NCBI GenBank assembly: GCA_041667145.1
Contig: JBAYFP010000001.1
Coordinates: 121,056-185,055, forward strand
Length of the DNA stretch: 64,000 nt
Direction of reading: 5' to 3'
Origin: Minisyncoccota bacterium
GTDB taxonomy: Bacteria; Patescibacteriota; Minisyncoccia; Phycocordibacterales; UBA9973
Part shown: one piece after another, positions 1-64,000 of the stretch
How positions within the stretch are numbered: position 1 is the first letter of the stretch
Layout of the letters: the number at the start of each line of letters is the position of its first letter
Notes under the pieces: model-generated
What the model was told of the DNA's origin: nothing
The model's input: only the letters and a program-made list of their open reading frames with translations
The model's database searches: none
Translations under genes and position numbers: made by a program

Positions 1-392
1 CTCTTTCTCAAAAATCAAATATCAGACAAGTGATTCCTATTTCTAAAAATAGTTTGAAGGAATTGATGGAAGAAATACACCTCTCCCCAACCCCTCTCCT
101 TAATAAGGAGAGGGGCGAAGGGGTGAGGTCTAAAATAGATTACCTGTTTGAAGGTGATCAAGAAGCATTGATAAAGTCACTTGCAGAAAAAATAACTAGA
201 ATGCAGATTTATCAAATGATTCTTGAGTCCAATGCTTCAGAACAATCTTCTCGAATGGTCGCAATGAAGAATGCTTCGGAGGCTGCAGGGGAAATGATAG
301 ATGATTTGACATTAGTATTCAATAAAGCTCGCCAAGGCAATATTACGAGAGAAATTTCGGAAATAAGTGCAGGCATGGCTTCGGTGAATTAA
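1..392 (+). CDS. atpG: F0F1 ATP synthase gamma subunit, C-terminal part (gene starts upstream of window)
   Basis: Frame is open to base 1. C-terminal motif ITREISEISAGMASV is typical of gamma, and the gene sits directly upstream of atpD and atpC. Contains an in-frame family-A palindromic insert (peptide HLSPTPLLNKERGEGVRS). Confidence 0.8.
   Translation, partial: LSQKSNIRQVIPISKNSLKELMEEIHLSPTPLLNKERGEGVRSKIDYLFEGDQEALIKSLAEKITRMQIYQMILESNASEQSSRMVAMKNASEAAGEMIDDLTLVFNKARQGNITREISEISAGMASVN
78..130. repeat. Family-A nested palindromic miniature repeat (core CCTCTCCTTAATAAGGAGAGG flanked by CACCCC/GGGGTG), in-frame inside atpG
   Basis: Read directly from sequence; near-identical copies at 2545-2598 (reverse orientation), 8901-8957 and 14366-14407. 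Confidence 0.8.
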
Positions 393-2234: not shown

Positions 2235-2957
2235 ATGAGTAAATTTTATGTAGTGGCGACGCCAATAGGTAATATGGGAGATATTACTCTCCGAGCCATT
2301 GAGACTCTAAAAGAGGTGGATTTAATATTGTGTGAGGATACTAGGGAAACAAGAAAAATCTTACAGAAATATAATATTAATACACCGACCATGAGCTATC
2401 ATACTCAAAGCAAGCTTGCTAAAGTAGATAAGATTTTTGAATTATTAGAAGAGGGGAAAAATCTAGCCTTAGTTTCTGATGCTGGCACACCGACTATTTC
2501 AGATCCAGGAGCAATGCTTATTTCTAAAATAAAAGAAAAATTTGACCTCACCCCTTCGCCCCTCTCCTTATTAAGGAGAGGGGTTGGGGGAGAGGTGGAT
2601 GTTCAGGTGATTCCAATCCCAGGCGCATCTGCTGTGATTGCTGCGCTTTCAGCTTCGGGATTGCCAACTCATGAATTTACTTTTCTTGGTTTTATGCCAC
2701 ACAAGAAAGGTAGAGAAACTCTTTTTAAGGAAATTGCTGAATCAAAGCGCACAATGATATTTTATGAATCTCCACATCGAATTTTAAAAACATTAGAATC
2801 TCTTGTAAAATTTTGCCCAAATAAAAAGGTCTGTATTGCTCGCGAGCTTACTAAAATTTATGAAGAAATTAAAACTGGCTCGCCATCTGAAATTTTAGAA
2901 TATCTCACTTCGAATCCCGTAAAACAAAAAGGGGAGTTTACGGTATTAGTCAGTTGA
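2235..2957 (+). CDS. rsmI: 16S rRNA (cytidine1402-2'-O)-methyltransferase RsmI (tetrapyrrole-methylase fold)
   Basis: N-terminus FYVVATPIGNMGDITLRAIETLKEVDLILCEDTRETRKIL is characteristic of RsmI. Contains a 53-bp in-frame family-A repeat (peptide DLTPSPLSLLRRGVGGEVD). Ends with TGA. Confidence 0.85.
   Translation: MSKFYVVATPIGNMGDITLRAIETLKEVDLILCEDTRETRKILQKYNINTPTMSYHTQSKLAKVDKIFELLEEGKNLALVSDAGTPTISDPGAMLISKIKEKFDLTPSPLSLLRRGVGGEVDVQVIPIPGASAVIAALSASGLPTHEFTFLGFMPHKKGRETLFKEIAESKRTMIFYESPHRILKTLESLVKFCPNKKVCIARELTKIYEEIKTGSPSEILEYLTSNPVKQKGEFTVLVS
2545..2598. repeat. Family-A palindromic repeat, reverse-complement orientation relative to the copy at 78-130, in-frame in rsmI
   Basis: Sequence gacctcaccccttcgcccctctccttattaaggagaggggttgggggagaggtgg is approximately the reverse complement of the 78-130 copy. 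Confidence 0.8.
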
Positions 2958-6362: not shown

Positions 6363-7136
6363 ATGAGCATTCTAGAAAATCTAGATAAAAATAATTTGCA
6401 CCATGCATATCTGATAGAAGGGGTTCGGGAAGAGATTGTGCCAGAGATTTTAGTACTTATGAAAAATCTTGGTATAGAAACTTCTAGCAATCCAGATTTT
6501 TGTCATATATCTGTAGATTCTTTTAAGATTGAAGATGCTCGTAATTTAAAATCAGTAGAATATGAAAAAGGTTTTTCAAATGGTAAAAAAATATTTTTAA
6601 TTTCTGCTAATAATTTTTTATTAGAAGCGCAAAATACATTACTTAAAATATTTGAAGAGCCGATAGAGAATACGCATTTCTTCTTGATTGTGCCAGATAA
6701 AAATATTTTACTTAAGACTTTAGTTTCTAGATTTTATTTGATTCCTACTAAACAAAATTTAGATGAAGGACTAAAAAAAGAAGCAGAGAAATTTATCAAA
6801 ATGCCTTTAAGAGATAGAATTGATTTTATTAAAGAATTATTAACAGAAGCAGAAGAAAATACGGAGGCCTTGCCTTCGCAAGGCGAAAGCAAGGCCTCCG
6901 CCAGATCCAAAGCATTGAAATTTTTAAATGCATTGGAAGCTATGTTGAATAGCAAATTTGTAAAGAATTTTTCCGGCTTAACCCTTCCCGGAGTACCGGG
7001 CGGGACCCACACCGTTCAAAATTCTTTACAAATTTGCTATCAACATATTTTTAAAGTTCGGGAGTTTTTAAATCAACCTGGTTCTTCGGTAAAGACTTTA
7101 ATGGAATCTGTGGCTTTGACTATTCCTAGTTTTTAA
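6363..7136 (+). CDS. holB: DNA polymerase III delta'-like clamp loader subunit
   Basis: HAYLIEG, NTLLKIFEEP...FFLI, SRF motifs resemble delta' (AAA+ without full Walker A). Carries two GC-rich in-frame palindromes. Confidence 0.55.
   Translation: MSILENLDKNNLHHAYLIEGVREEIVPEILVLMKNLGIETSSNPDFCHISVDSFKIEDARNLKSVEYEKGFSNGKKIFLISANNFLLEAQNTLLKIFEEPIENTHFFLIVPDKNILLKTLVSRFYLIPTKQNLDEGLKKEAEKFIKMPLRDRIDFIKELLTEAEENTEALPSQGESKASARSKALKFLNALEAMLNSKFVKNFSGLTLPGVPGGTHTVQNSLQICYQHIFKVREFLNQPGSSVKTLMESVALTIPSF
6862..6900. repeat. GC-rich nested palindrome inserted in-frame in holB-like gene
   Basis: cggaggccttgc-cttcgcaaggcgaaag-gcaaggcctccg: a perfect 12-bp inverted repeat around an inner palindrome, in a ~30% GC background. 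Confidence 0.7.
6983..7006. repeat. Second short GC-rich palindrome in holB-like gene (cccggagtaccggg)
   Basis: Read from sequence. Confidence 0.5.
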
Positions 7137-7724: not shown

Positions 7725-8900
7725 ATGAATATTATAATTTTTGTTGTAATTTTATTGATATTGGTTCTCGTTCATGAATGTGGGCATTTTTTTACTGCTA
7801 AGAAATTTGGTATTCGTGTAGATGAATTTGGCTTTGGTTTCCCTCCAAAATTATTTAGTTTTAAAAAAGGGGAGACAGAATATTCTATAAATGCTTTGCC
7901 TTTTGGAGGATTTGTTAAAATTTTTGGAGAAGATATGGATGAGGCAGATCTTTTAGAGGTTGGATTTTTAGATAAGAAACCTGCCCGCAATGCTGAAAGC
8001 ATAGCTTCTGCAGGCGGGGAAACTGTTGAAAAAGTTGATTTAGCTAGGAGTTTGGTAAGTAAACCTAAATATCAACAAGCAATGGTTATGTTTGCAGGTA
8101 TTTTTGCGAATTTTTTGCTAGCTTGGCTTTTATTTTCTGTGGGTTTTATCTCAGGGCTACCGACATCAGTAGGAAGTGAACCGAAAGGATATTCTGTGGC
8201 AGATGCGCATTTGGTTTTAGTTTCTGTTTTAGCTGGTTCGCCAGCAGAGATTTCAGGATTAAAGACTGGAGATAAAATAGTTTCCATAAAAAGTGGCAGT
8301 GATATTATTTCTGATATCAATCCTGATACATTAAAATCTTTTATACTCTCACATGGAGATAAGAAAATTGAATTTGGATATTTACGTGGAAAAAGTGAAA
8401 CGATAAACATCACAAATGTGACACCTATTAAAAAAACTGTTAATGAAAACCCCACTATTGGCATAGCTATGGACCAGATAGGAACCCTCAGATTGCCTAT
8501 TTTGAACGCTTTTTGGGAAGGGTTGAAGTTAGACTGGAATGTGACAAAAGGCACTGTAGTGGGCCTTTATACGCTTATATCAGGTGCTATACAAGGTAAA
8601 GGTAGCTTTTCTCAAGTTACAGGACCTGTAGGAATGGTAGGCATCGTAGGCGATGCATATCAATTTGGTTTTGTTTATCTTCTTTCTTTTATGGCATTGA
8701 TTTCAGTCAATTTAGCCATAATAAATCTTATTCCGTTTCCAGCACTCGATGGCGGAAGGATATTATTTTTACTTATTGAAAAAATAAAAGGTTCTCGCTT
8801 AAATCCTAAATTTGCAAATTATGCAAACATGATCGGTTTTGCTATTTTGATTTTATTGATGTTGGTTGTGACGTATCATGATGTAGTGAAATTGTTTTGA
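7725..8900 (+). CDS. rseP: RIP zinc metalloprotease RseP (site-2 protease family M50)
   Basis: HECGHF HExxH motif at the N-terminus, an internal PDZ domain, and C-terminal NLIPFPALDGGR; ends with TGA. Confidence 0.85.
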   Translation: MNIIIFVVILLILVLVHECGHFFTAKKFGIRVDEFGFGFPPKLFSFKKGETEYSINALPFGGFVKIFGEDMDEADLLEVGFLDKKPARNAESIASAGGETVEKVDLARSLVSKPKYQQAMVMFAGIFANFLLAWLLFSVGFISGLPTSVGSEPKGYSVADAHLVLVSVLAGSPAEISGLKTGDKIVSIKSGSDIISDINPDTLKSFILSHGDKKIEFGYLRGKSETINITNVTPIKKTVNENPTIGIAMDQIGTLRLPILNAFWEGLKLDWNVTKGTVVGLYTLISGAIQGKGSFSQVTGPVGMVGIVGDAYQFGFVYLLSFMALISVNLAIINLIPFPALDGGRILFLLIEKIKGSRLNPKFANYANMIGFAILILLMLVVTYHDVVKLF

Positions 8901-8957
8901 TCTCACCCCCAGCCCCTCTCCTTAATAAGGAGAGGGTGGCCGAAGGTCGGGTGAGGT
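8901..8957. repeat. Family-A palindromic repeat, intergenic (immediately after rseP stop)
   Basis: tctcacccccagcccctctccttaataaggagagggtggccgaaggtcgggtgagg. Confidence 0.8.
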
Positions 8958-9155
8958 GAATTTATGAAATCAGAAATCAAAACCTGTCAGAATTGCAAGA
9001 AAGACTTTACAATAGAGCCAGAAGATTTTAATTTTTATGAAAAAATAAATGTTCCTCCACCAACATTTTGCCCAGAATGCAGGATGGTGCGACGCCTTAC
9101 TTGAAGAAATGAGCGTTCTTTATTTCATGCGATATGTGATAGTTGTGGTAAAAAA

Positions 9156-10679
9156 ATGTTTTCTTCTTATTCATCAAAAAAAGATTATAAAATTTTCTGT
9201 AGAGAATGTTGGCTTTCAGATAATTTAGATCCTCTTTTATATGGACAAGACTATGATTTTTCCAAACCATTTTTTGAACAATTTAAAGAACTTTCAGAAA
9301 AAATACCCCATCTAAATCTTTTTCAGATTAATACAAAAAATTCTGATTATGCCAATGCAGTTAGAGATAGTAAAAATATCTATCTTTCATATTCTGTAGT
9401 AGATGGAGAAGACGTTTTTTATTCTAAAGACATTGATCGTTCTAGGCAAATTTATGATAGTATCACGACGACTGATTCTGAGAAATCAGCTTTTCTTGTT
9501 TATTGTGTAAATGATTACAATGTTATCTATTCAGTAATGACTATGGATTGTTTTGATTCTTCTTTTCTTTTTGATTGCCGAAATTGTTCTAATTGTTTTA
9601 TGTCTACTAATTTAAGGAACCAGCAATACGTATATAAGAATCATAAGTATAGCAAAGAAGAATATTTTTCTATAATTAATCAGATTGATACAGGTAGTCA
9701 CGAGGAGTTTAAAAAATTGGTGACAGAGTTTGAAGAAATGAAATGTAAGGCTATTCATAAGTATTCTCATGTTGGTAAATCCGTTATCAATTCTACGGGG
9801 GATGCTATAAGTAATACTAGAAATTCAAAAGAATGCTTTAACGCATATAACACAGAAAATGTGAAATGGGTTTATAGAGGTTTTGATTTAAAAGATTCCT
9901 ATGATTGCAATCATGGTGGGCTTATGTCTGAGCTAGTATATGAATTTATATCTGGAGGGAAAGAAGAATATAAGACATATTTTACTGCTTCTGCTATGAA
10001 TCCATTACGGGACACTTATTATACTGCTTGGTCTACAGGTTCAAAATTATTTGGTTGTTTTGGTATTAAAGGTGATAGTTATTGTATCTTAAATAAAAAA
10101 TATACCAAAGAAGAATATGAAGAATTAATACCAAAAGTAATTAAACATATGAATGATATGCCTTATGTGAATGATAAGGGAAGAGTGTATAGATTTGGTG
10201 AGTTCTTTCCTTTTGAACTTTCTCCTTATGCATACAATGAATCTGTCGCTCAAGAATTTTTTCCGTTATCATCTGAAGAGATAGTAAATAAAGGTTATAC
10301 ATATTATGAAAATGAAAAGAATAAATATGAAATTACTAAAAAGCCTGAAGACTTGCCAGATAATATATCTGAAGTTAATGAAGATATATTAAAAGAAGTC
10401 ATTGAATGTGAACATAAAGGAGAATGTTTGCATCAATGTACTACTGCTTTTAAAATACACCCTGAAGAGTTTTCTTTTTATCGTAATCACAAACTCCCAA
10501 TTCCACATTTATGTCCCAATTGTCGTTTTTATGAAAGATTAAAATATCGTAACCCTTGGAAACTTTGGCATAGAAAATGCATGAAGGAAGGGTGTACTAA
10601 TGAATTTGAGACTCCTTATGCTCCAGATAGACCTGAAACAATCTATTGTGAACGTTGTTATCAGCGTGAAGTATACTAG
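9156..10679 (+). CDS. Cys-rich multi-zinc-ribbon protein of unknown function (paralog of 62517..64000). Likely true start at 8964, with an in-frame TGA at 9102-9104.
   Basis: ORF-track ORF of 507 aa. Many CxxC pairs. C-terminal block HKGECLHQCT...LPIPHLCPNCRFYERLKYRNPWKLWHRKC...PDRPETIYCERCYQREV is shared with the gene at the other end of the window. Confidence 0.7.
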   Translation: MFSSYSSKKDYKIFCRECWLSDNLDPLLYGQDYDFSKPFFEQFKELSEKIPHLNLFQINTKNSDYANAVRDSKNIYLSYSVVDGEDVFYSKDIDRSRQIYDSITTTDSEKSAFLVYCVNDYNVIYSVMTMDCFDSSFLFDCRNCSNCFMSTNLRNQQYVYKNHKYSKEEYFSIINQIDTGSHEEFKKLVTEFEEMKCKAIHKYSHVGKSVINSTGDAISNTRNSKECFNAYNTENVKWVYRGFDLKDSYDCNHGGLMSELVYEFISGGKEEYKTYFTASAMNPLRDTYYTAWSTGSKLFGCFGIKGDSYCILNKKYTKEEYEELIPKVIKHMNDMPYVNDKGRVYRFGEFFPFELSPYAYNESVAQEFFPLSSEEIVNKGYTYYENEKNKYEITKKPEDLPDNISEVNEDILKEVIECEHKGECLHQCTTAFKIHPEEFSFYRNHKLPIPHLCPNCRFYERLKYRNPWKLWHRKCMKEGCTNEFETPYAPDRPETIYCERCYQREVY

Positions 10680-10762
10680 AGACGTTGGACATCTGGGAGT
10701 ACCCAGGTGTACAACGTCTGAGTTTCTTGACGTTGTACGTCTTCCTGAGACGTCCAACGTCT
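10679..10762. repeat. Family-C nested palindromic repeat (AGACGTTGGAC...GTCCAACGTCT), abutting the stop codon of the Cys-rich gene
   Basis: 84 bp; outer 11-bp inverted repeat plus inner GTACAACGTCTGAG / GACGTTGTAC palindromes; nearly identical copy in reverse orientation at 49434-49516. Confidence 0.85.
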
Positions 10763-10804
10763 AAATTAATTTTGCAAAGATATTTTATTTTATGCACATA
10801 GTCC

Positions 10805-13223: not shown

Positions 13224-14363
13224 ATGTCTAAAAATCTTCCTCTTTCTTATATAGAAATATCTAAGGACAATTTAATACATAATGTAAAAGTACTTAAGAA
13301 ACTCTCGGGAAGGACCAAGATGATTGGGGTGATTAAGGGTAATGCTTATGGTCATGGGCAAAATGAAGTAGCCAAGATTTTGGAGCCGTATGTTGATTGT
13401 TTTCAAGTCAACAGCATTTCAGAGTTAGAATTATTACGCAAAGTAAGTAAGAAAAAAACATTTGTTTTGGGCTATATTCAGAAAGAAGATTTAGCAGAAG
13501 CCATAAAACTCGGCTGTGTGTTATCTATTTTTTCAATAGAGCAGATGCAGAATGTCTCTATTATGGCAAAGAGTTTAGGTAAAGTGCAAGAAATACATGT
13601 ACCTATAGATGCATATCTGGGTAGGGAAGGCTTTTTACTGAATGAATTACCTAAATTTTTTAGTGAACTTAAAAAATGCAAAAATGTAAGGCTTACAGGC
13701 ATGTATGCACATTTTGCAAATATAGAAGATACAAATAATTTTACACATGCGAAAAAGCAAATTAAAAAATATAATGAAGCAATAAAATTAGCTAAGAAAT
13801 TTGGATTTAATAAATTACAAACTCATATCTCTGCCACATCAGGACTTCTGGTATATGAATCAAAAAATATTAAAAATAAAAATACTTTTGTTCGTTTGGG
13901 TATAGGACTTTATGGATTGTGGCCATCAGAGCATATTAAATATTTATATAAAAGTAAATTTATTTTAAAGCCAGTACTTTCTTTGAAAACAAAAATTACG
14001 CAAGTAAAGATTTTACCCGCAGGTCATACTGTGGGGTATGGTTTGACGTATATGACTTACGAGCCGACGAAGATAGCTGTCATACCACTCGGCTATGCTG
14101 ATGGTTTTGATAGAGATTTTTCGAATAATGGAGAAGTACTAATTGGTGGCACGAGATGTAAAATCTTAGGAAGAATTGCGATGAATATGTTTGTTGTTGA
14201 TGTGAATCATTTAACAGATGTTAAGATCGAAGACGAGGTTGTGATTATCGGATCTCAAGAAGGGGAATGTATCACAGCAGAAGAAATTGCAAAAAAAATT
14301 GATACTATAAATTATGAAGTTGTCACTCGTTTGAGTTCTTTATTACCTAGAGTGATTGTTTAA
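13224..14363 (+). CDS. alr: alanine racemase
   Basis: PLP-lysine motif VIKGNAYGHG, 379 aa, typical C-terminal beta domain. Confidence 0.9.
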   Translation: MSKNLPLSYIEISKDNLIHNVKVLKKLSGRTKMIGVIKGNAYGHGQNEVAKILEPYVDCFQVNSISELELLRKVSKKKTFVLGYIQKEDLAEAIKLGCVLSIFSIEQMQNVSIMAKSLGKVQEIHVPIDAYLGREGFLLNELPKFFSELKKCKNVRLTGMYAHFANIEDTNNFTHAKKQIKKYNEAIKLAKKFGFNKLQTHISATSGLLVYESKNIKNKNTFVRLGIGLYGLWPSEHIKYLYKSKFILKPVLSLKTKITQVKILPAGHTVGYGLTYMTYEPTKIAVIPLGYADGFDRDFSNNGEVLIGGTRCKILGRIAMNMFVVDVNHLTDVKIEDEVVIIGSQEGECITAEEIAKKIDTINYEVVTRLSSLLPRVIV

Positions 14364-14365
14364 AT

Positions 14366-14407
14366 TCACCTCACCCCGACCCTCTCCTTAACAAGGAGAG
14401 GGGGAAT
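14366..14407. repeat. Family-A palindromic repeat (shorter copy), intergenic after alr
   Basis: tcacctcaccccgaccctctccttaacaaggagagggggaatt. Confidence 0.7.
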
Positions 14408-15196: not shown

Positions 15197-18100
15197 ATGA
15201 AATTTACTGTTTTTTCTCGTAAAAAAATTCCACACAAAGTTGGAGGCTTTTCTCGTGTTATAAGACTGAAAATTAAATTAAGATTTGAAAAATTAAGAAA
15301 GAAAAAATTTGAAGAATCTATAGTGAGAATAATAAAAGAAAAAATGTTAATGAGAAAAGAAGAAATTAAGAAAATGATTAAAATAATAAAAGAAAACATA
15401 ATGCCGAAAAAAATGATAAACACAAAAAACATTTTAGTTTCTTTTTTTATTTTTTCTTTTTCTTTTTCTTTTTTATATAATCCAAATCAGGTTTTAGCTG
15501 TAGCGCCTACAGTAAATATTACATATAGTTCGAACCCAGTTAAAGCAGGGACACAGAGAATCTCAGTTACATATTCTTCTCAGCCTGCAAGTACTCCTAC
15601 CATTGGTATTAATCAACTAGGAACTACAGATATTCCAAATGGTACAGCTATGGTTCCTCCTTATAGTGATATCAATGCTCCTGGAGTCACTTGGTCAAAT
15701 CCTTTATCATCTAACATAGGATCTGCAGGTGGTTATTGGAATTCTATTGCCTATGGTAATGATATATTTGTAGCTGTTTCGAATTATGGATCAGGTAATA
15801 AAGTAGCAACATCTTCTGATTATGGTGTTACTTGGATTCCTAGGACACCTGCAGAGAGTAACAATTGGGAATCTGTTACTTTTGGCAATGGTATTTTTGT
15901 CGCAGTTTCAAGTAATGGTAATCATAGAGTTATGACCTCAGATAACGGAATTAATTGGTTTCCTCAAAATGTTACGGAAGATTATGACTGGCAATCTGTT
16001 ACTTATGATAATGATCATGGAGTTTTTGTAGCTGTTGCTGATTCTGGTACACATAGAGCAATGACTTCGTCAGATGGTATTATTTGGGAATATAAAACAA
16101 CAGGTTCATATTCTTGGAATTCTGTTGCTTATGGTAACGGAGTTTTTGTAGCTGTTGGTAATCTTGGTAAAATACAAAAATCAACAAACAGCGGTGATAC
16201 ATGGAATGATCCTCAAATAAATAGTAATTCGGCATATTTATATTCTGTTGCTTATGGTAACGGAGTATTTGTTGCAGTCGGGGCTAGTGGTACTATAAGA
16301 ACTTCTTCAGATTTTGGTGATACTTGGCAAGAGCAAACTTCAGGAACTGGTTTAACTATTTCAGATGTGACTTTTGGTAATAATACTTTTGTTGCAGTTA
16401 CTAATTCTAGTGCTAATTTGTTTTTAACTTCACCTGATGGTTTACATTGGACAAGTAGAACAGCTACAGCCGGTGCTACATCTATTGCTTATGGTACTCC
16501 TACTATCAGTGGTGTTGAGACCTCTATGTTTGTAGCAGTTGAGCGTACGAGCTCTCTTGGTACTAATTTAATTACTTCTACAAGTAGAAAATTAAGTTTT
16601 GATGCTGCTCATACATATTATTATGATTATACAGTTTGCGCTGCTGGTAATAGTGGCACTGGTGCTTGCGAGGGTAATTATGTAGATGGTACAGCGACAG
16701 TCACCTTATCAGATGTAAAAGATCTATATGGTGTTTCATATACCCCAAGTGGTACTACATTTACGATTGATACTACCGAAAGTGCTCCCGGTACTCCTGA
16801 TATGACAGCAGGGACAGATACTGGTTCCTCTAGCACAGATAATACTACTTCTGACACGACTCCTGATTTTACTATTTCTTGTGATACTGGAGCTACTGTC
16901 ACTTTATATAAGGATACAACTTCTTCAGTTGGTACGGGAACATGTTCTTCTTCAACGGTTACAATAACTTCATCAACTCTTTCAGCTGGTACTTATGCAA
17001 TGAACGCTAAACAAACTGATGCAGCGGGTAATACTTCGAGTGCATCAGGAAATCTTTCAGTTACGATTGACACAACTGCGCCTAGCGTCAGTACTGTTAC
17101 TTACTCTAGATCTAGTATAAAACAAAATGATACATTAACTATTACAGTTAATTTTAATGAAGCTTTAGCAATTACTAATCCTCCACAAATTGCGATTTCA
17201 GGAGTTAATAATCTTACAGCTACAAATATGACAGAAGGATATGAGACTTGTGATCGTCATCCATGTGCACAAGTGCTGAGTCCTTCAAGGTGGACTTATG
17301 ATTTTTCTATACAGTCAGGAAATGGTTCACCGACTGTTACTATAAGTGCAGGTCAAGATGCAGCAGGAAATATTATGACAAATGCCTCTTCTCCTACTAG
17401 TTTTTCTAGTTTTACAGTAGACAATATTGCTCCAACAAATCAAAATACTGTTTTTCCAACCTCAATTTCAAAAAAGAGTAGCGTGACAGTGACATCACCA
17501 AATATTGTTTCTGCAGGAGAAACAGGTGGTTCAATTTGGTTTGCTCCATCGGGAACAACTACATTTACAGCTGGTGCAACTATGACTACAGCAGGAGGGA
17601 CAGCCACAACTATTTTAGCTCCACTTACTGCAGGATCATATAAATTATTTGTCCGTGATGCAGCCGGAAATACATCTTTAGCCTCGACTGCGATTTTGAC
17701 TGTCGATAATACTGCACCGACTGTTGCCTTATCATATACCTCCGATCCAATTAAGGCGGGGACACAAACTATTACAGCTACATATTCTAAAGCGATTACA
17801 AGTATTCCAAACATTAGAGTTGATCAATATGGGACTGTGCCAGATGATCTTCTTTTTCATCCAATGACCAATAATGATAGTGGAGTTAATAAAGTTTGGA
17901 AATATGATTATACAGTTCATGCAGCTACTGATTCATGTCCACAAGGGGGAACTCCTCCTTGTTATGCAGATGGTACAGCTCAAGTATCTTTATCATCTAC
18001 CACAGATGTAGCGGGAAATACTTCTGGTACTCCTAGTAGTTCTACATTCATAATTGACACCGCAGCACCTACAAATTCTATCAGTGCTCCATCAGTTTCT

Positions 18101-21100
18101 TCTACTTCAATTGGTCCTGTAACATATACTGTTTCTTACTCAGGAGCAAATACTGTTTCACTTGCTAATGAGAATATAACTTTAATCAAAACAGGAACAG
18201 CTGATGGAACAGTCGCTGTTTCAGGTACTGGTATATCTTCTCGAACAGTGACTATTTCTTCTATCACTGGTACTGGCACTTTAGGAATTTCTATTGCTGC
18301 TGGTACTGCTTCTGATACTGCGGGAAATACTTCTCTAGCTATGGGAGCGTCTACTACTTTTGATGTAAGTAATGTTCCTTTAACAGTTGCAAGTATTTCT
18401 GTAGATTTAGCCTCAGGTTCATATAAATCTGGTCAAGCAATAATAACAACAGTAACTTTCTCTAAAGATGTTACATCGACTGGGAATGCAACTGTGACAT
18501 TTGATACGGGAGGGACATGTACTTTTACTATTAGTAATGCTTCATCAGGAAGTTGTACTTATACTGTCGGGGCTGGACAAAATTCTAGTGTTTTAGCTGT
18601 CTCGTCTGTTACGGGGACTATAAAAGATGCTGCCTTAAATTTATTGACTGCAACTACTCCTGTGATGAATATTTCTCCAACAAAAACAATTGTGATTGAT
18701 ACCACAGCACCAATTCTTTCCTTCACTGATGATGTAGCTGTTGGTCCTACATCTTCTGATACAATCACTGCTTCTTGGGTTGGTACTACTACTGGACAAA
18801 AAAAATGGATGTATGATACGGATAGAATTTGTTCACCTACTTCAACTGATTACACAATGACAGATAGTGATTCAATGGATCAAATTACAACCACAAACAA
18901 TACAAAATTTATTTGTTTGTATGGAGCAGATCTTGCTGGAAATTATTCAACACTAGCTTCAACAAATGATATAAATATTGATGCTAGTGGACCGACTGTC
19001 AGTATTTCTTCTCCCACTTCAAGCCCTACAAACGAAACAATAACTGTTAATGTTTTGTTTGATAAATCTGTTTCTGATTTTATTTATTCTGATATTTCAG
19101 TTACAAATGGTACAGTTTCATCTGCATCTTTTTCTGGCTCAGGAATGACTTATTCTTTTATAGTTACACCAACAGCTAATGGAGTAGTTGGTATAAGTAT
19201 TGGTTCAGGGGTGGCACATGATACAGCAGGAAATACAAACTCTGCTTCTAACTCTATATCCATAACATATAGTAATATAGGGCCGACAGTTATTTTAAGT
19301 TCCCCGTCACCTTATTATATTAATGGCTCATTCGATGTCGTTGCCACCTTTAGTGAACCTGTGACTGGGTTTACTTCAGCGGATATTACTATAAATGGTG
19401 GTATAGGTAATAGTTACGTAGACGGTTGGGCTGATGATGGTACAACGTATGAATTTTCTATTGTTCCAGATGGAGGAGGAATTGTTACTGTTGATATTAA
19501 TGGTGGAGTTGCTGTAAATGCAGCCCAAAATGGGAATATCGCTGCTACACAACTTTCTAGATTAAATGATACTGCTCCGCCTACTGCATATGATATCCCA
19601 ACAATTTGTTCTGTTGAAGGAAATTTATGTACTACCGCAGGTCAAAATGCCGATCCACAGGAAGTATATGATGTCGGTATGAGTACTATTTCTAGTACTG
19701 CCGAAGATGGTGATTCAGGAATAAGTAATGTTCAAATTTCAATTAATGATACTACTGCCAATAAATGGTATAACGGTACAATATTTACAACATCTGGTAG
19801 TGAAATATTATTAAATACAGTATTTGCATATTCAGAGAACGACGGGCAAACTCACTGGAGTTATGATTTTTCTAGCGTACCTTTAATTACTGGGGATACG
19901 TATACGATTAAAGTTACTGTTACAGATGGAGTATCTAATACAAATACTGCATCAGAATCTTTTAAATTTATAAATTCTGCACCAGAAGTTTCGAATGTAG
20001 TTCCATTGGAAGATGCGACTGGTTTAGTGACAGTGCATTATGATGTTACAGATAATGAATCTTCTCAAACTACGAATTATTTATTTTACAGTGTAGGAGG
20101 AAATGGTGTAGACGCAGGTTTAGCTAGTGACGCAACAAGTCTTAATTTATCTGACGCTACTTATTTCCCAAATTCAGGAATTATTCTTATAGATAATGAG
20201 ATGATTTCTTATACAAGTAAATCAGGAGCTACTCTTTTAGGTCTCACCAGAGGGATATTAAATACGATACCAGTTGCTCATGAAGATAGTGCTACTGTAT
20301 ATATAAAAGCAAGTTCAGCTACAGGTGGCGGAATTGGATTATCTGATGTTGGTACAAATAAGACTATAACTTGGCAAGCATCTTCTGATGCAAATGGATA
20401 TGAATATGATGTATCTTTTATTAAAGTTGTTGCAAATGATGGAGGAGTTGCCAATATGGTAGGTTCAGCAACTAACGAGGAAGGATTTATTCTTGATGCA
20501 AAAGCACCTACTGCAACAGTCACATTTGACGCTGGTGTCGGGGGAGAAACAAATAGTGGAGTAATTACTATTCCGATGCCTGAAGATATATCAGCTGTTG
20601 AGTATAAGATTACAGATGTAAATAATTTGTCAACAAATGCAGATTCTGGTGTTTGGAAATCTATAACGACTAGTACAACTTTACCTTGGACTTTTGATTC
20701 TAATATCATAGCAAGAAGTTTGAAATATCAGTTTAGAGATGCATACGGAAATATTGGATCTGAAATTACTACCTCTACCCAAGATCCGATTCCTACTAAG
20801 TTATTTACTGTCACTGATACATCGAATGTTTCATCAACACCTGCTTATCATCAAATGCATATGGATTGGCAGGCAGTGAGTTCTAGTGGGTTTTCTTCTT
20901 ATAAATTAGAATATAAAACATCTAGAAATAATATTAATTACATTGGTAATGGTTACACATCTATCTCTAGTACAGCTCTCAACAATGTTAGTACTGATAG
21001 TTATGATGATAAAAGTTTAACGCCAGATAATTTTTATAAATATCGTATAGGGATAATCGGTACTAATGGTAATGTTTCTATGAGATCAGATACTATTCTC

Positions 21101-32023: not shown

Positions 32024-34324
32024 TTATTTTATTTTATTTAGTTTGTCAGGACGATTATTGGGACATTTATTATTACTACATCTTTCAGGAATTGTTTTTG
32101 TACCTTCCATCATCAAGGAACCACATTTATCACAAATTTTACCTGTAGGTTTTGCTTTGATAGCAAATTTACAATCAGGATAATTTGAGCAGGAATAAAA
32201 TATGCCAAATCTTCCACGTCTTTCAGAGATATCTCCTTTTTTACATAGAGGACAAATCACACCAGTTCTTTTTCTCGCTTCTTCTGCCTCATCTTTCTTT
32301 ATGAATTTACACTTCGGATAACGTGAACAGGAGATAAAAGTACCTGTACCGTCACGTCTTTGTTTGATTATAAGTTTTCCACCACCAGATTTTCCCTTTT
32401 TTTCTCCACATTCTGGACACATTTCGCCAGTTTCCTTTGGGCCTTCAAGTTCTGTGCCGTCTAATCTTAATGCTCCATCGCAATCAGGATATTTAGAACA
32501 GGAATAAAATTTACCTCCACGGGAAAGCTTGATGATCATACTACTACCACATTTAGGACATTTAATATTTTCTGGTGCGTCACCTAAATTTGTTGCTTTT
32601 TCTAATTTTTCTTTTATTTTTACTTCTTTTGAAAAAGGACCATAAAAATCTTTAAGAGTTTTTTCATATTCACGTTCTCCTCTAGAAATTTGATCAAGTT
32701 CATCTTCCATCTCTGCGGTAAAAGTATCAGAAATATAATTTGCAAAGTTTTTTTCCAAGAAATCAGATACGACTTCACCGACGTCGGTGGGAAAGAGAGT
32801 CTTATTTTCCTTTCTTACATATTCTCTATCCTCCAAGGTTTTCATTATAGATGCGTAGGTGGAAGGTCGGCCTATGTCTCTTGATTCAAGTTCTTTAATC
32901 AATCCAGCTTCACTATATCTATTTGGTGGTTCAGTAAATTTTTCTTCTTTAATAAGATTTAATAATTTTAATTTTTCTCCTTCTTTTACTTCGGGTAATT
33001 CGATATCTTCTCCAACACTATCTTTATCTACTAGAAGCCAACCAGTAAATAAAATTCTTGAGCCAGTAGCAGAGAAATCAGGGAATTTGAACTCCTGAGA
33101 CGTTGGACGTCTGGATTCTGTATCGGCTTCCAGACGTCCAACGTCTGGGGTTATGTTTGCACTTATTTTCGTCTTTAATAATTTTGCATCAGACATTTGT
33201 GAAGATACTGTACGTTCCCAAATTAATCTATAAAGTCTTTGCTGCTCCTCTGTCCCAGCTTGAAGATTTTCTATATGGGTAGGACGAATAGCCTCATGTG
33301 CCTCCTGAGCATTTTTTGATTTAGTTTTATAAATTCTAGCTTGTGCATACTTACTACCATATTTTTTTTCTACAAGAGAAACTATTTGAGCTTGAGCGAC
33401 AGCAGATAAATTTGTACTATCTGTTCGCATATATGTGATGTGTCCTGCTTCGTATAGTTTCTGCGCTATTTGCATAGTTCTTGAAGGGGAGTAGCCAAGT
33501 CGTGAGCTTGCTGTTTGTTGTAATGTAGAAGTAGTGAAAGGTGCACGAGGAACTCTTTTTTGTTCTGATTCTTTTACTTCTTTCACTATCCAATCTTCTT
33601 TTTTACCCAATTCGAGAATTTTTTCAACTAATTTTTCATCTCTTGGTTCTTCTACACAAACAAGAGTAATTTTTTCCCCTCCTGCCTGAGGAGGGGTGCC
33701 TTTTAAGGCGGGGTGGTGGGAGGTTTCAAAAAGTCCTAAAAGTTTCCAATATTTTTCAGGAATAAATGCACGAATTTCTCGTTCACGTTCCATTATGATA
33801 CGAAGCGCAGGGGATTGAACTCTTCCAGCTGAAAGTCCATAACGTACTTTTTTCCAAATAAGACCTGAAAGATCATATCCTACGAGTCTATCGAGTACTC
33901 GTCTTGCTTCTTGGGCTTTTCTTAGGTTTGTATCTATATCACGAGGGTGCTTTAAAGCTTCTTCCACAGCGTCTTTAGTAATTTCATAAAAAACTACCCT
34001 TTTTATAGGGGCTTTTATTCTTTTGCTTTTCTTTAATAATTCTTCAATATGCCAAGCGATAGCTTCTCCTTCACGATCAGGGTCTGTTGCTAAAAGTATT
34101 TCATTTGCTTTTTCTCCGAGAGATTGAAGTTCATGGACAACTTTTTCTTTACCTTTAGAAATTTCGTAATGTGGTATAAATCCACCTTCTATATCGATAG
34201 CTATTTTATTTGATTTTGGTAAATCACGAATATGTCCAATAGAAGCACGTACTGTGTACGCACCTTCTAAATATTTTTCAATAGTCTTTGCTTTTGATGG
34301 TGATTCTACAATTAAAAGTTTCAT
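32024..34324 (-). CDS. topA: DNA topoisomerase I with C-terminal zinc ribbons
   Basis: TOPRIM N-terminus LLIVESPSKAKTI, active-site region, 3-4 C4 zinc ribbons. Contains two in-frame GC-rich palindromic insertions. Confidence 0.9.
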   Translation of the reverse strand: MKLLIVESPSKAKTIEKYLEGAYTVRASIGHIRDLPKSNKIAIDIEGGFIPHYEISKGKEKVVHELQSLGEKANEILLATDPDREGEAIAWHIEELLKKSKRIKAPIKRVVFYEITKDAVEEALKHPRDIDTNLRKAQEARRVLDRLVGYDLSGLIWKKVRYGLSAGRVQSPALRIIMEREREIRAFIPEKYWKLLGLFETSHHPALKGTPPQAGGEKITLVCVEEPRDEKLVEKILELGKKEDWIVKEVKESEQKRVPRAPFTTSTLQQTASSRLGYSPSRTMQIAQKLYEAGHITYMRTDSTNLSAVAQAQIVSLVEKKYGSKYAQARIYKTKSKNAQEAHEAIRPTHIENLQAGTEEQQRLYRLIWERTVSSQMSDAKLLKTKISANITPDVGRLEADTESRRPTSQEFKFPDFSATGSRILFTGWLLVDKDSVGEDIELPEVKEGEKLKLLNLIKEEKFTEPPNRYSEAGLIKELESRDIGRPSTYASIMKTLEDREYVRKENKTLFPTDVGEVVSDFLEKNFANYISDTFTAEMEDELDQISRGEREYEKTLKDFYGPFSKEVKIKEKLEKATNLGDAPENIKCPKCGSSMIIKLSRGGKFYSCSKYPDCDGALRLDGTELEGPKETGEMCPECGEKKGKSGGGKLIIKQRRDGTGTFISCSRYPKCKFIKKDEAEEARKRTGVICPLCKKGDISERRGRFGIFYSCSNYPDCKFAIKAKPTGKICDKCGSLMMEGTKTIPERCSNNKCPNNRPDKLNKIK
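33096..33148. repeat. Family-C palindromic repeat inserted in-frame in topA (encodes DVGRLEADTESRRPTSQ)
   Basis: cctgagacgttggacgtctgg-attctgtatcggctt-ccagacgtccaacgtctgg: 17-bp perfect inverted repeat. Confidence 0.85.
33681..33703. repeat. Short GC-rich palindrome cccctcctgcctgaggagggg in-frame in topA (encodes ...TPPQAGGE...)
   Basis: Read from sequence. Confidence 0.6.
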
Positions 34325-49427: not shown

Positions 49428-49433
49428 CTATTT

Positions 49434-49516
49434 AGACGTTGGACGTCTCAGGAAGACGTACAACGTCAAGAAACTCAGACGTTGTACACCTGGGTACTCC
49501 CTGATGTCCAACGTCT
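49434..49516. repeat. Family-C nested palindromic repeat, intergenic; near-identical reverse complement of 10679-10762
   Basis: agacgttggacgtctcaggaagacgtacaacgtcaagaaactcagacgttgtacacctgggtactccctgatgtccaacgtct. Confidence 0.85.
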
Positions 49517-49639
49517 GTAAATCCTTATTTTATAAGCTTTATTCAATTTTTACTTGACATACAACTTCATATATGCTATACTCTATGTAGTTTTGTACCA
49601 TAAAAATAATATATTTATTCATTCACAATAGGAGTTTTT

Positions 49640-53253: not shown

Positions 53254-54504
53254 ATGTTAGAATATTTCAAAACAAGGCGTGCTTCTGCCACTATTCTACT
53301 TGTAGTCATTTTTTTTGGGCTAGGCATTTATATAGGATTTAATAATAGACCAGAGATTGATAAAGTTGTCAATATTACTGGTAAAGAAACTGCCGTAAAA
53401 ACAGACGCTGATTTTTCTCCTTTTTGGAAAGTTTGGAATGATATTAATGAAAAATATCCTAGTGCAAGTAAAATAACTGATCAAGAAAAAATCTACGGCG
53501 CTATTTCAGGGCTTGTAAGCTCATTAAATGACCCATATAGCGTATTTTTCAATCCAGATGACACAAAGACGTTTGAGAGTGATATACAAGGAAGTTTTGG
53601 TGGAATAGGCATGGAAGTCGGAATGAAAGATAAAGTACTTACTGTCATAGCTCCACTAAAAGATACTCCAGCCTATAAAGCTAATATAAAATCAGGTGAT
53701 AAAATTCTTAAGATCAATGACACATTGACCTCAAATCTAACAGTCGAGAAAGCAATAAAATTAATTAGAGGAGATGTAGGTACTACGGTTAGACTCACAA
53801 TTTTTCGTGATGGAGACAAAGAACCAAAAGAAATTAAAATCATAAGAGATACCATCAATGTTCCGACCCTCGACACTGAAATGAGAAAAGATGGGATTTT
53901 TGTAATCAAACTATATAGTTTCTCTGCGAACTCTGCTTCACTTTTCCGCAACGCTCTAAAAGAATTTTCCGATTCAAATACTGATAAATTGTTGCTAGAT
54001 TTAAGAGGAAATCCAGGGGGATACTTAGACTCAGCTGTCAGCATGGCAAGCTGGTTTTTAGATGGGGGTAAGACTGTTGTCACAGAAGATTATGGTAATA
54101 ATATTAAACCAAAGGCATACAGAAGTCTTGGTTATAATATTTTTACAGATAAATTAAAATTCGTTATCTTGATAGATAGTGGTTCTGCTTCAGCCTCTGA
54201 GATATTAGCAGGTGCGATGCAAGATTATAAAAAAGCCAAACTCGTCGGAGAAAAAAGTTTCGGCAAAGGTTCTGTTCAAGAAGTGGTAAAAGTGACGGGA
54301 GACACCATTTTAAAGATTACAGTGGCTAAATGGCTTACTCCAAATGGTAATTCTATCTCCGAAAAAGGTTTAACGCCTGACTATGAGGTACCTATAAAAG
54401 CAAAGGACATTGAAAACAAAAATCCTGCCCACAATGCTTCTAGCATAGCTGGGACAGGCGGGGATCCTCAATTAAACAAAGCTATAGAGTTATTATTAAA
54501 ATAA
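53254..54504 (+). CDS. ctpA: carboxyl-terminal processing protease (S41 family, PDZ-containing)
   Basis: PDZ segment GDKILKIND, catalytic region LDLRGNPGG...S41 motifs. Confidence 0.85.
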   Translation: MLEYFKTRRASATILLVVIFFGLGIYIGFNNRPEIDKVVNITGKETAVKTDADFSPFWKVWNDINEKYPSASKITDQEKIYGAISGLVSSLNDPYSVFFNPDDTKTFESDIQGSFGGIGMEVGMKDKVLTVIAPLKDTPAYKANIKSGDKILKINDTLTSNLTVEKAIKLIRGDVGTTVRLTIFRDGDKEPKEIKIIRDTINVPTLDTEMRKDGIFVIKLYSFSANSASLFRNALKEFSDSNTDKLLLDLRGNPGGYLDSAVSMASWFLDGGKTVVTEDYGNNIKPKAYRSLGYNIFTDKLKFVILIDSGSASASEILAGAMQDYKKAKLVGEKSFGKGSVQEVVKVTGDTILKITVAKWLTPNGNSISEKGLTPDYEVPIKAKDIENKNPAHNASSIAGTGGDPQLNKAIELLLK

Positions 54505-62472: not shown

Positions 62473-62513
62473 CCTAGACGTTGTACGTCTTCCTGAGACG
62501 TCCAACGTCTAGG
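62473..62513. repeat. Family-C palindromic repeat (short copy), abutting the 3' end of the second Cys-rich paralog
   Basis: cctagacgttgtacgtcttcctgagacgtccaacgtctagg matches the 3' half of the 10679-10762 copy. Confidence 0.8.
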
Positions 62514-62516
62514 TAT

Positions 62517-64000
62517 CTATGATACTTCTGCTTGATAACACTCTTTACAATAAATAATTTCTGGTCTATCTGGGGAATACGAGGTCTTAAATTCAACAGC
62601 ACATTCACCATTACCATGGGAATGAACTGCTGTATTTTCATACAACCCATTTCTTGATTTGTTACCAATACAATCACATTTACGACTCCATAACTGCACC
62701 GGATTACGTTCTTCTAATCTTATATGATAACGACAATTAGGACAAAATCTTGGAAGTGGTAAATTCATTTGTTTATAAAATTGAATTTCTTTAGGAATTA
62801 TTCTGAATACTTCAGTACATTGATGATTACATTCTCCTTTATGCCCACATTCAATAACATCCTCAGTTATAGTTTCTTCTACCTCATTAATATGATCAGG
62901 CAAATCCGCTGTATATTTTGTGATTTTATAATTTCTTGTTTCAGAGTCTTTCCAAGAATAACCTTTTTTTACAGCATCTTCTTTGTGAAGTGGAAAATGA
63001 TCCTGAGCTATACTTTCATTATAAGCAAAAGGAGAAATTTCGGGTGGAAAAAATTCACCATATTTATAAATACGTCCCTTTTTATCTTTAAACGGTAATG
63101 CATCCATCTGTTCAATAATCTTAGATTTCAAAATCTCATATTCTTCTTTTGAGTAACTCTTGTTTAAAATGCAATATTTTTTATCCTTTAAACAAACTGA
63201 CCCAAAAATATCTGAAGAAGATACACATAAATCCGAATAAGTGACATTATTTGTATACCAACAGGTAGTAGAAAAAAGTTTAAGAAAATTTTGTTCAATA
63301 TTTGCACTTTCATATATCAGTTCAGCATTATCAGCAAAATTAAAATCGTGACTATCCTTTACGTTCGAACAAAAATATGCATATTTTAGATTCTCCGAAT
63401 TTCTTACATAAAAACTATTATGGCAATTCCTTGTTTCAAACAACTCGTTACCGTCTGAATTTATACAAAGGACATTGTTGGCAAAACGATGTGGTACTCT
63501 AGTGTATAGATCTAAGAAATTTTCCTTGAGTTTTTTTAATTCAGGATAAGAACCAATTTTTTCTTTAAGAGAAACAAATTCTTCTTTAGATATTTTTTTA
63601 TTAAGCAAAAAATTACTTTTATTAAAAAGATTAATACATCCTAAACATTCTAATACATTTTTACAATTTTTTATGTATACACTATCTATCGAATTCATAG
63701 AGTTATCAGCAAAACCAACCCTATAATTTTTTGTACCTTGATTGGTTTCATAACAAAATTCTGAATCAACTACTCCAAAACAATCAAAAGACTCTTTAGT
63801 ACGAAAAGTGCGATCACAATATGCACAATTTTCACAGGTATCTGAACAATTGACTAAATAACAATTCTTATGATTAGCAGAATAATTCACATAAGGTGAA
63901 TTTACATTATTATTACCTATTAATGCTGGCCTAGGGACTGTTTCTAAAAGTTTTTTAAATTGTGAAAAAAATGGTACAGAAAAATCAAAATCTAAACCAT
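62517..64000 (-). CDS. Cys-rich multi-zinc-ribbon protein, paralog of 9156..10679; 5' end runs off the window
   Basis: Upstream of the track start (GTG at 63888-63890) the frame stays open to base 64000, and its translation (...LDFDFSVPFFSQFKKLLETVP...) aligns with QDYDFSKPFFEQFKELSEKIP of the first paralog. C-terminal PDRPEIIYCKECYQAEV matches PDRPETIYCERCYQREV. Confidence 0.7.
   Translation of the reverse strand, partial: GLDFDFSVPFFSQFKKLLETVPRPALIGNNNVNSPYVNYSANHKNCYLVNCSDTCENCAYCDRTFRTKESFDCFGVVDSEFCYETNQGTKNYRVGFADNSMNSIDSVYIKNCKNVLECLGCINLFNKSNFLLNKKISKEEFVSLKEKIGSYPELKKLKENFLDLYTRVPHRFANNVLCINSDGNELFETRNCHNSFYVRNSENLKYAYFCSNVKDSHDFNFADNAELIYESANIEQNFLKLFSTTCWYTNNVTYSDLCVSSSDIFGSVCLKDKKYCILNKSYSKEEYEILKSKIIEQMDALPFKDKKGRIYKYGEFFPPEISPFAYNESIAQDHFPLHKEDAVKKGYSWKDSETRNYKITKYTADLPDHINEVEETITEDVIECGHKGECNHQCTEVFRIIPKEIQFYKQMNLPLPRFCPNCRYHIRLEERNPVQLWSRKCDCIGNKSRNGLYENTAVHSHGNGECAVEFKTSYSPDRPEIIYCKECYQAEVS

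Follow-up and report, generated by a model that had tools for sequence, protein, structure and literature searches.

In a Minisyncoccota bacterium, rsmI, the gene encoding the 16S rRNA C1402 2′-O-methyltransferase, carries a 54-nt palindromic element within its reading frame. We analyzed this element in a 64,000-nt stretch of genomic DNA (GenBank assembly GCA_041667145.1, contig JBAYFP010000001.1, positions 121,056 to 185,055 of the forward strand), hereafter called the window, and compared it with related loci and with copies in other genomes. The interpretation that we consider probable is that the rsmI insert is a tolerated, translated and non-autonomous repeat, which is kept uniform at the level of the nucleic acid. 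The reading frame was intact in every allele examined. The RsmI encoded in the window was 100% identical to an NCBI protein named “Candidatus Paceibacterota”, a sequence match that assigns the genome to the Patescibacteria, Paceibacterota/Nomurabacteria type.

The rsmI insert and the other copies in the window

The rsmI element (GACCTCACCCCTTCGCCCCTCTCCTTATTAAGGAGAGGGGTTGGGGGAGAGGTG) occupies positions 2544-2597 of the + strand, about one base from the 2545-2598 given in the original prediction, and corresponds to codons D104-V121. It is laid out as a four-block palindrome, Y′-Y-loop-R-R′ (Y, pyrimidine block; R, purine block), in frame with the gene. The element is the reverse complement of positions 78-130 in a fragment of atpG (98% complementary over 49 nt), which confirms that the same element was inserted in opposite orientations in the two genes. 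Both open reading frames (ORFs) continue without interruption through the element, and the peptides that had been quoted for the two coding copies, DLTPSPLSLLRRGVGGEVD and HLSPTPLLNKERGEGVRS, were correct. The 25-nt core was found at four places in the window, compared with 0 matches in 100 dinucleotide shuffles, and a diverged copy was present at a fifth. The host gene and the other copies are as follows.

2235..2957, + strand: rsmI, 16S rRNA C1402 2′-O-methyltransferase; intact ORF of 240 amino acids (aa)
78..131, + strand: inverted copy, in frame in the C-terminal fragment of atpG (HLSPTPLLNKERGEGVRS), in the linker before DYLFEGD
8901..8959, + strand: intergenic copy with an extra mini-hairpin, GGCCGAAGGTC, in the R-R′ linker
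14367..14404, - strand: three-block copy, Y-R-R′ on the minus strand; intergenic
33673..33726, - strand: diverged triplex-type element (CCCCTCCT..AGGAGGGG..hairpin..GGGGTGGTGGG), in frame in topA

The copy at 8901-8959 fills the spacer between the stop codon of rseP (8900) and the next ATG (8964), and that at 14367-14404 begins 3 nt past the stop codon (14361-14363) of the ORF at 13224..14363. The last block of the former ends in GGTGAGGTGA, 4 nt before ATG 8964, and could, to judge from its sequence and spacing, act as a ribosome-binding site for that ATG. TAAGGAG, the purine block, itself matches the Shine-Dalgarno sequence perfectly and lies buried in the hairpin. The topA element encodes ETSHHPALKGTPPQAGGEK in an ORF identified as topoisomerase I, and this fifth copy probably belongs with the in-frame copies located between domains. 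The RNA fold of the rsmI element had a predicted energy of −42.2 kcal/mol (z = −6.0), and the hairpins of the elements were very stable in general (−36 to −42 kcal/mol). The element is GC-rich, with 52-57% GC in its core, in a window of 33.5% GC.

Several comparisons indicated that the rsmI element is a true insertion into an intact gene. Escherichia coli RsmI (PDB 5HW4) aligned to query residues 1-101 and 120-239, with nothing opposite residues 102-119. A short loop of 13-16 residues, lacking the insert, was observed in 29 of 120 close RsmI homologues (77-100% identity), for example IKESLSD-VEVIPIPG in proteins of 222-224 aa, and a loop of this length was likewise present in 51 of the 77 related metagenomic loci with a scorable rsmI site. 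The predicted peptides spanning the insert junctions are FDLTPSPLSLLR and GVGGEVDVQVIPIPGASAVIAALSASGLPTHEFTFLGFMPHK. In an AlphaFold model of the window RsmI (mean pLDDT 75.7), the insert was placed between a helix (90-102) and a strand (123-128) as a low-confidence, Pro/Gly/Arg-rich loop of 18 residues, with pLDDT below 50 at residues 107-119. The N-domain-only structure 3hh1 covers query residues 4-97, and the C-domain-only structure 3ffy covers 131-237. According to the model, the insert is thus a surface loop that precedes the last strand of the N-terminal half. A position between the two halves of the tetrapyrrole-methylase fold, as had been proposed, is therefore nearly right but displaced by that strand, whereas the proposal of a plausible loop position agrees with the model. 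When the insertion points were placed on structures, that of atpG fell in a hypervariable linker, just upstream of residue ~200 in solved bacterial gamma subunits.

A more trivial explanation regards the insert as an artefact of assembly or as a normal protein loop restricted to the lineage, with incidental palindromy. Loop length is indeed variable in the RsmI family. However, copies of the same DNA occur in other phyla, in spacers between genes and in genes that are not related to one another, and it recurred at the rsmI site in many independent assemblies from different samples. These observations refute this explanation, to which we attach practically no probability.

Conservation of the insert and its readability

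In the closest relatives, L202 and L203, whose RsmI proteins were 88% and 87% identical to that of the window, the atpG copy and the rsmI copy are both present, with orientations and junctions unchanged from the window. Comparison of the window with L202 gave the following nucleotide identities.

rsmI (19-codon block 102-120): flanks, 79% of all positions and 55% of third positions; insert, 95% (54/57) of all positions and 95% (18/19) of third positions
atpG: flanks, 71% of all positions and 43% of third positions; insert, 98% (53/54) of all positions and 100% (18/18) of third positions

The same was observed among all pairs of the seven rsmI alleles that bear an element of this triplex-motif (TM) type, a class described below: flanking third positions were 45-59% identical, whereas those of the insert were 71-100% identical and the insert DNA as a whole 77-95%. 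The binomial P for each pair ranged from ~1e-5 to 1e-1, the pairs being non-independent. In two other hairpin families, compensatory double substitutions in the arms were found that change the peptide (ACGTCAAC/GTTGACGT versus ATGTTAAC/GTTAACAT in one, and CCGCTAGG/CCTAGCGG versus GCGTTAGG/CCTAACGC in the second). Conservation far above that of synonymous sites, together with these compensatory changes, points to a constraint on the nucleic acid and not on the peptide. The source of this constraint may be selection for propagation of the element, correction against other copies, self-templating by the hairpin, or a function for the host.

The original prediction had taken the translatability of the palindrome in both orientations as a sign of selection for coding-compatible insertion. 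Translation in six frames showed that the element is open in each orientation, but only three of the six frames are stop-free: one frame in each orientation is closed by a TAA from the loop TTAATAA, and GGTGAGG closes a further frame with TGA. We compared the element with 20,000 composition-matched shuffles, in plain and palindromic versions. At least one frame per orientation was open in 91% of the plain shuffles and in 88% of the shuffled palindromes, and the median outcome was three of six open frames, as in the element itself. Readability both ways is what base composition leads one to expect, and is not a mark of design.

The placement of the copies bears on the same question. Long ORFs cover all but 5.4% of the window, yet two of the four clear copies fall between genes; when the topA copy is counted, two of five copies lie in the part outside long ORFs (P ~0.03 under random placement, by our own arithmetic), which suggests that coding insertions are depleted. 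At least three reading frames are used across sites, the core being read as PLSLxRRG, PLLNKERG or PLLIKERG in Patescibacteria. To judge from these sequences, the pattern fits unselective insertion followed by the loss of disruptive copies.

It follows that an element shaped by selection for coding compatibility in either orientation, so as to colonise genes in the manner of the Rickettsia palindromic elements (RPEs), is improbable. In its favor are the in-frame use of both orientations, the use of at least three frames across genes, and the restriction of stop codons to the loop and a single TGA. These features are offset by the equal readability of ~90% of matched shuffles, by the three closed frames, by the position of the family mainly outside long ORFs elsewhere (cyanobacteria and E. 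coli), and by the two copies in the small non-ORF fraction of the window. The proposed likeness to the Rickettsia elements holds to the extent that a dispersed palindrome is in frame both ways; there was no sign that it had been shaped for coding.

The frames in use also bear on whether the insert could be removed before the protein functions, either by splicing or processing of the mRNA or by excision from the protein. Patescibacteria are reported to carry unusual numbers of introns in RNA genes, and the hairpin could be a substrate of the RNase III type. On the other hand, introns of group I or group II and inteins are all much larger than 54 nt, and no Rfam match was obtained. Among the related loci, the frame is maintained and free of stop codons in each of the 26 alleles that bear an insert. 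Moreover, the rsmI allele of locus L122 uses a frame that is closed in the consensus, and its loop is altered to TAT CAA, which argues that ribosomes really read through the element. We consider removal of the insert very improbable.

The triplex-motif class and recurrent insertion in loops

A full-text literature search using sequence words of the element led to the G/C-rich motif described by Holder et al. 2015 (PMC4666352). This motif, designated TM, is the same as the earlier BoxC, first found in E. coli, and as PIT, named subsequently by Maher's group. More than 260 prokaryotic genomes contain it, with very high numbers in Enterobacteria and Cyanobacteria, and in E. coli K-12 its location is always intergenic (PMC4666352). 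No link to transposons, phages or plasmids was reported, the motif was associated with local sequence instability, and a triplex was not detected in double-stranded DNA or in vivo; earlier work summarised in the same paper found no promoter or terminator activity of the E. coli motif (PMC4666352).

An E. coli example, CCCTCTCCC-tgtg-GGGAGAGGG-ccg-GGGTGAGGG (PMC4666352), and the window element, CCCCTCTCC-ttaataa-GGAGAGGGG-cgaa-GGGGTGAGG, share one plan: a C/T block, a short loop, a complementary G/A block, a short linker and a second G-rich block, which could by its sequence lie antiparallel on the purine block (G.G-C, A.A-T and T.A-T triads). The two also have in common a dispersed distribution, high conservation, the lack of a linked transposase and abundance in cyanobacteria. 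The window element differs in having a fourth block, CACCTCTCCCC, which makes it a full palindrome with the triplex-type layout on both strands, in its loop (TTAAYAA), and in its host, which has an AT-rich Patescibacteria genome. Furthermore, three of the five window copies are in frame inside essential genes (atpG, rsmI and topA), in contrast to the exclusively intergenic E. coli motif.

We scored the layout with a script that searches for a pyrimidine block, its complementary purine block and an antiparallel third block. Members of the TM class have three consecutive blocks that could form a class II purine-motif triplex; their stems measure 6-15 nt and contain no more than one mismatch, their loops are 1-6 nt long, and their G/C content exceeds 50%. 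The atpG and rsmI copies gave 10 of 11 triads on both strands, the copy at 8901-8959 gave 9/10 and 8/9, and that at 14367-14404 gave 9/10 on the minus strand. The script also recovered two TMECO sequences from Table 1 of PMC4666352, and it found 53 nested matches in the window compared with 0-2 in shuffled windows. The loops in the atpG, rsmI and 14367-14404 copies measure 3 nt and 2-4 nt, within the TM range, and the 8901-8959 copy has a 12-nt linker that holds the mini-hairpin. Sequence architecture thus places the element in the BoxC/PIT/TM class. No Rfam family matched the element at gathering or permissive thresholds, at which only tRNAs and chance sub-threshold matches were returned.

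The exact 23-nt core was detected at more than 120 loci among the matches listed, mostly in Nostocales cyanobacteria, and was usually flanked by the outer arms ACCTCACCCC...GGGGTGAGGT; in many cases the linker held another small hairpin. The other loci listed belong to Nomura-, Sacchari-, Moran- and Zambryskibacteria, Ignavibacteria, Dehalococcoidia, Armatimonadales, Burkholderiales and Agitococcus. Among the cyanobacterial matches listed, 87 of 91 core copies lie outside long ORFs. In Patescibacteria, in-frame copies are common; those located between Pfam domains were found in a class I aminoacyl-tRNA synthetase (L098), in PurL (L092 and L081, the site being identical in these two genomes), in UvrC and UvrA (L029), and in AtpG at the site used in the window (L073/L203). 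A triplex-type element (LPLPQPLSYKERGERQGEGS) is also in frame in the RefSeq-annotated cas10d of a Stanieria cyanosphaera plasmid (NC_019765.1; L205, 1501-1540), so in-frame copies extend beyond Patescibacteria. A search for a possible vector gave one match in 2.9 million viral contigs, one phage record and one plasmid record.

The rsmI loop is bounded by ..IKEKF(N) and (D)VQVIPIPG, and here the window (2535-2600) was compared with loci L121-L200. Loci L121-L204 derive from groundwater and lake samples. An insert was present in 26 of the 77 related loci, and nearly all of these inserts were near-perfect hairpins, which belong to approximately nine unrelated families; empty sites fold at ~0 kcal/mol. 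In other genomes, families from the rsmI loop also occupy the loops of atpG and holB. In L137, three identical 43-nt perfect hairpins (ACTTGGTAGTCGGAGTACCAAGTGGTACTCCGACTACCAAGT) lie within 8.7 kb, at 1303, 3270 and 4325, and two of them occupy the atpG and rsmI loop sites and encode the peptide VVGVPSGTPTT at both. Since this hairpin, including its arms, is present at three places, the arms are not inverted duplications of the target flank. Nor are the rsmI families one ancient insert that has diverged, because the same families recur at the atpG and holB loci and the three L137 hairpins are identical. Parsimony on a neighbor-joining tree required 51 state changes for 25 classes; the tree was built from ~220 residues with 80-90% identity and is of low resolution, so that it gives no more than a hint that inserts at the rsmI site turn over often, by gain, loss or replacement. 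From these comparisons, the rsmI loop looks like a landing site that has been used repeatedly. A second, rarer insertion site in RsmI, at residues 55-62 (PSDDVVGKNSRQS), was seen in P0009, P0013, P0035-P0039, P0097 and L171, with 20 extra residues in P0097.

The samples that yielded L121 and L122 are related, and the rsmI alleles of these loci agree in outer arms and loop; their asymmetric bulges are swapped between the arms. This swap shifts the frame inside the element (PSPLSLSRRGVGGEV in L121 versus NPSPYQGEGRRGEV in L122). When L122 is viewed as an in-situ flip of L121, the bulges are swapped but the loop is not. The difference could have arisen by arm-to-arm templating or by a partial flip of the sequence.

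Hairpins of other families are also present in frame in the window.

6862..6900, + strand: unrelated GC-rich hairpin family, ALPSQGESKASA, in frame in holB
6968-7023: further hairpin family, in frame in holB
7974..8020, + strand: another hairpin family, KKPARNAESIASAGGE, in frame in rseP

The insert at 6862-6900 is missing from most relatives, and peptides of its family are found at the atpG site of L167 and L186, while the holB site of L187 holds a different hairpin family. The rseP insert at 7974-8020 is absent from all relatives aligned, and a second copy of its hairpin lies at 54418-54464, likewise in frame, at the end of an ORF encoding an S41 peptidase.

Three further observations concern the window itself. 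A third repeat family, GACGTTGTACGTC...GACGTCCAACGTC, is located at 10593-10766, 49430-49519 and 62474-62603, in spacers or near gene ends, and includes a 90-nt inverted pair that is 98% complementary over a distance of 38.7 kb. A conserved zinc-ribbon gene (8964-10679) begins at ATG 8964 and continues as the ORF 9156-10679; it contains an in-frame TGA at codon 47 (9102-9104; RLT*RNER), where the relative L202 has Phe (RLCFKNER), and this TGA could be a sequencing error, the mark of a pseudogene or a site of read-through. Finally, a 2956-aa ORF at 15197-24067 has internal ~120-nt periodic repeats (direct-repeat families D1, D2 and D5), and its product is probably a giant surface protein.

Proposed origin and relation to other repeats

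The conservation and the recurrence at one loop could also mean that the hairpin is kept for a role in the host at the RNA or DNA level, with the peptide as a by-product. Examples of such a role are the slowing of ribosomes at a domain boundary, the stabilising or processing of mRNA, and a DNA structure for replication or recombination. Third positions of the insert were 71-100% identical compared with 43-59% in the flanks, a GC-rich sequence persists in a genome of 33.5% GC, and compensatory changes in the arms are retained despite amino acid changes. Unrelated hairpins occupy the very same loop across many lineages, all mapped in-frame copies lie between domains, and the hairpins are very stable (−36 to −42 kcal/mol). 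Against this, the lack of the insert in 51 of 77 related loci and in 29 of 120 homologues indicates that it is dispensable, tolerance predicts an inter-domain position equally well, and conservation can also be explained by constraint on the element itself or by correction between copies. The E. coli motif, moreover, showed neither promoter or terminator activity nor a triplex in vivo (PMC4666352). We regard a host role as possible, though rather unlikely. A broader version is that short hairpin repeats of gene-dense Patescibacteria, among them a triplex-type motif which is shared across phyla and had been described as intergenic, are under nucleic-acid selection as built-in mRNA or DNA structures at domain boundaries, spread without a transposase by hairpin templating and reload the same few loops of essential genes; this we consider speculative and, like the host role, unlikely.

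In the explanation that we prefer, a tolerated and translated repeat, the element landed in a surface loop of RsmI and would be transcribed and translated through. Its orientation would be arbitrary, because the element is almost self-complementary, and it would be readable either way because stop codons are scarce in its pyrimidine and purine blocks. Loss would remove the copies that break frames or strike structured regions, and in a genome of ~95% ORFs those remaining would gather directly behind stop codons and in a small number of loops between domains, in which other hairpin families would build up as well. The copy would be held near the family consensus by a constraint on the nucleic acid, such as the needs of propagation, correction between copies or self-templating by the hairpin. 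As a working guess, insertion may occur in trans, by a process that depends on a hairpin or on single-stranded DNA.

Several points weigh against this explanation. No transposase-type domain was found in the 40 window ORFs scanned against Pfam, and no target-site duplication was found at the junctions when filled and empty rsmI sites were compared, the junctions being blurred by codon changes. The element is nearly absent from viral contigs, phages and plasmids, so that no vector for spread across phyla is visible. Conservation far above that of synonymous sites is unlike that of an insert which is merely tolerated and decays. The intactness of all alleles is in part an effect of ascertainment, since the proteins and loci were collected through their similarity to a query that was itself intact, and translation of the insert is itself deduced from sequence.

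Among known repeats, the RPEs comprise ten Rickettsia families of ~150 bp, each encoding a conserved peptide (PMC10969869). Like the window element, they are palindromic repeats of a small, gene-dense genome and have entered the reading frames of unrelated housekeeping genes at sites where protein function can be retained (PMC10969869). The window element is set apart by its size (54 nt) and its Patescibacteria host, and also by its occurrence across phyla and its use of at least three frames. RPE copies deteriorate over time, whereas elements of the window type stay near their consensus. The REP/REPIN repeats are mobilised by RAYT transposases. They are short, GC-rich, imperfect palindromes, which occur in many copies, often just after genes, and are conserved in sequence in the service of their own propagation (PMC3116915 and PMC2817692). 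The window element, in contrast, occurs inside genes. The REP end tag is the tetranucleotide GTAG or CGTC (PMC3733652); neither was present in the four window copies, whose ends are CACCTC.../...GAGGTC, and no RAYT (IS200/IS605-type tyrosine transposase) domain was found in the 40 window ORFs scanned or in the genes called in L202-L204. Miniature inverted-repeat transposable elements derive from an insertion sequence and combine terminal inverted repeats with a target-site duplication; the whole unit here is one palindrome, and no parent insertion sequence was seen. The small dispersed repeats (SDRs) of Nostoc, attributed to Elhai et al. 2008 (Genome Res 18:1484), are reportedly very small hairpin repeats of 21-27 nt with compensatory changes and nested insertions. 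So far as that description goes, they resemble the present element, which has nested hairpins in the R-R′ linker and whose core is most abundant in the same cyanobacterial group.

What appears to be new, from the sequences compared, is the presence of in-frame copies between domains of RsmI, AtpG, an aminoacyl-tRNA synthetase, PurL, UvrC, UvrA and probably TopA in Patescibacteria. Two further points appear to be new: close relatives carry approximately nine unrelated hairpin families in one and the same RsmI loop, and the inserted DNA evolves far more slowly than synonymous sites beside it, with 77-98% identity between orthologues whose flanking third positions are 43-59% identical. No paper on in-frame hairpin repeats in genes of Patescibacteria or the CPR was found, in a literature coverage that was incomplete, so that this amounts to absence of evidence only. 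The argument from translatability is ordinary in itself, and the wider pattern is moderately surprising. It joins two literatures, that on the BoxC/PIT/TM triplex motif and that on in-frame palindromic insertions of the Rickettsia type. In Patescibacteria, such repeats would be read through in essential proteins, and the same loops appear to have been struck repeatedly. The findings also carry a warning, since Pro/Gly/Arg-rich loops in these proteins may be derived from repeats and inflate the apparent novelty of the proteins. With its filled and empty alleles, several families and clean junctions, the rsmI loop offers a natural system for the study of how repeats of less than 100 nt move and stay uniform.

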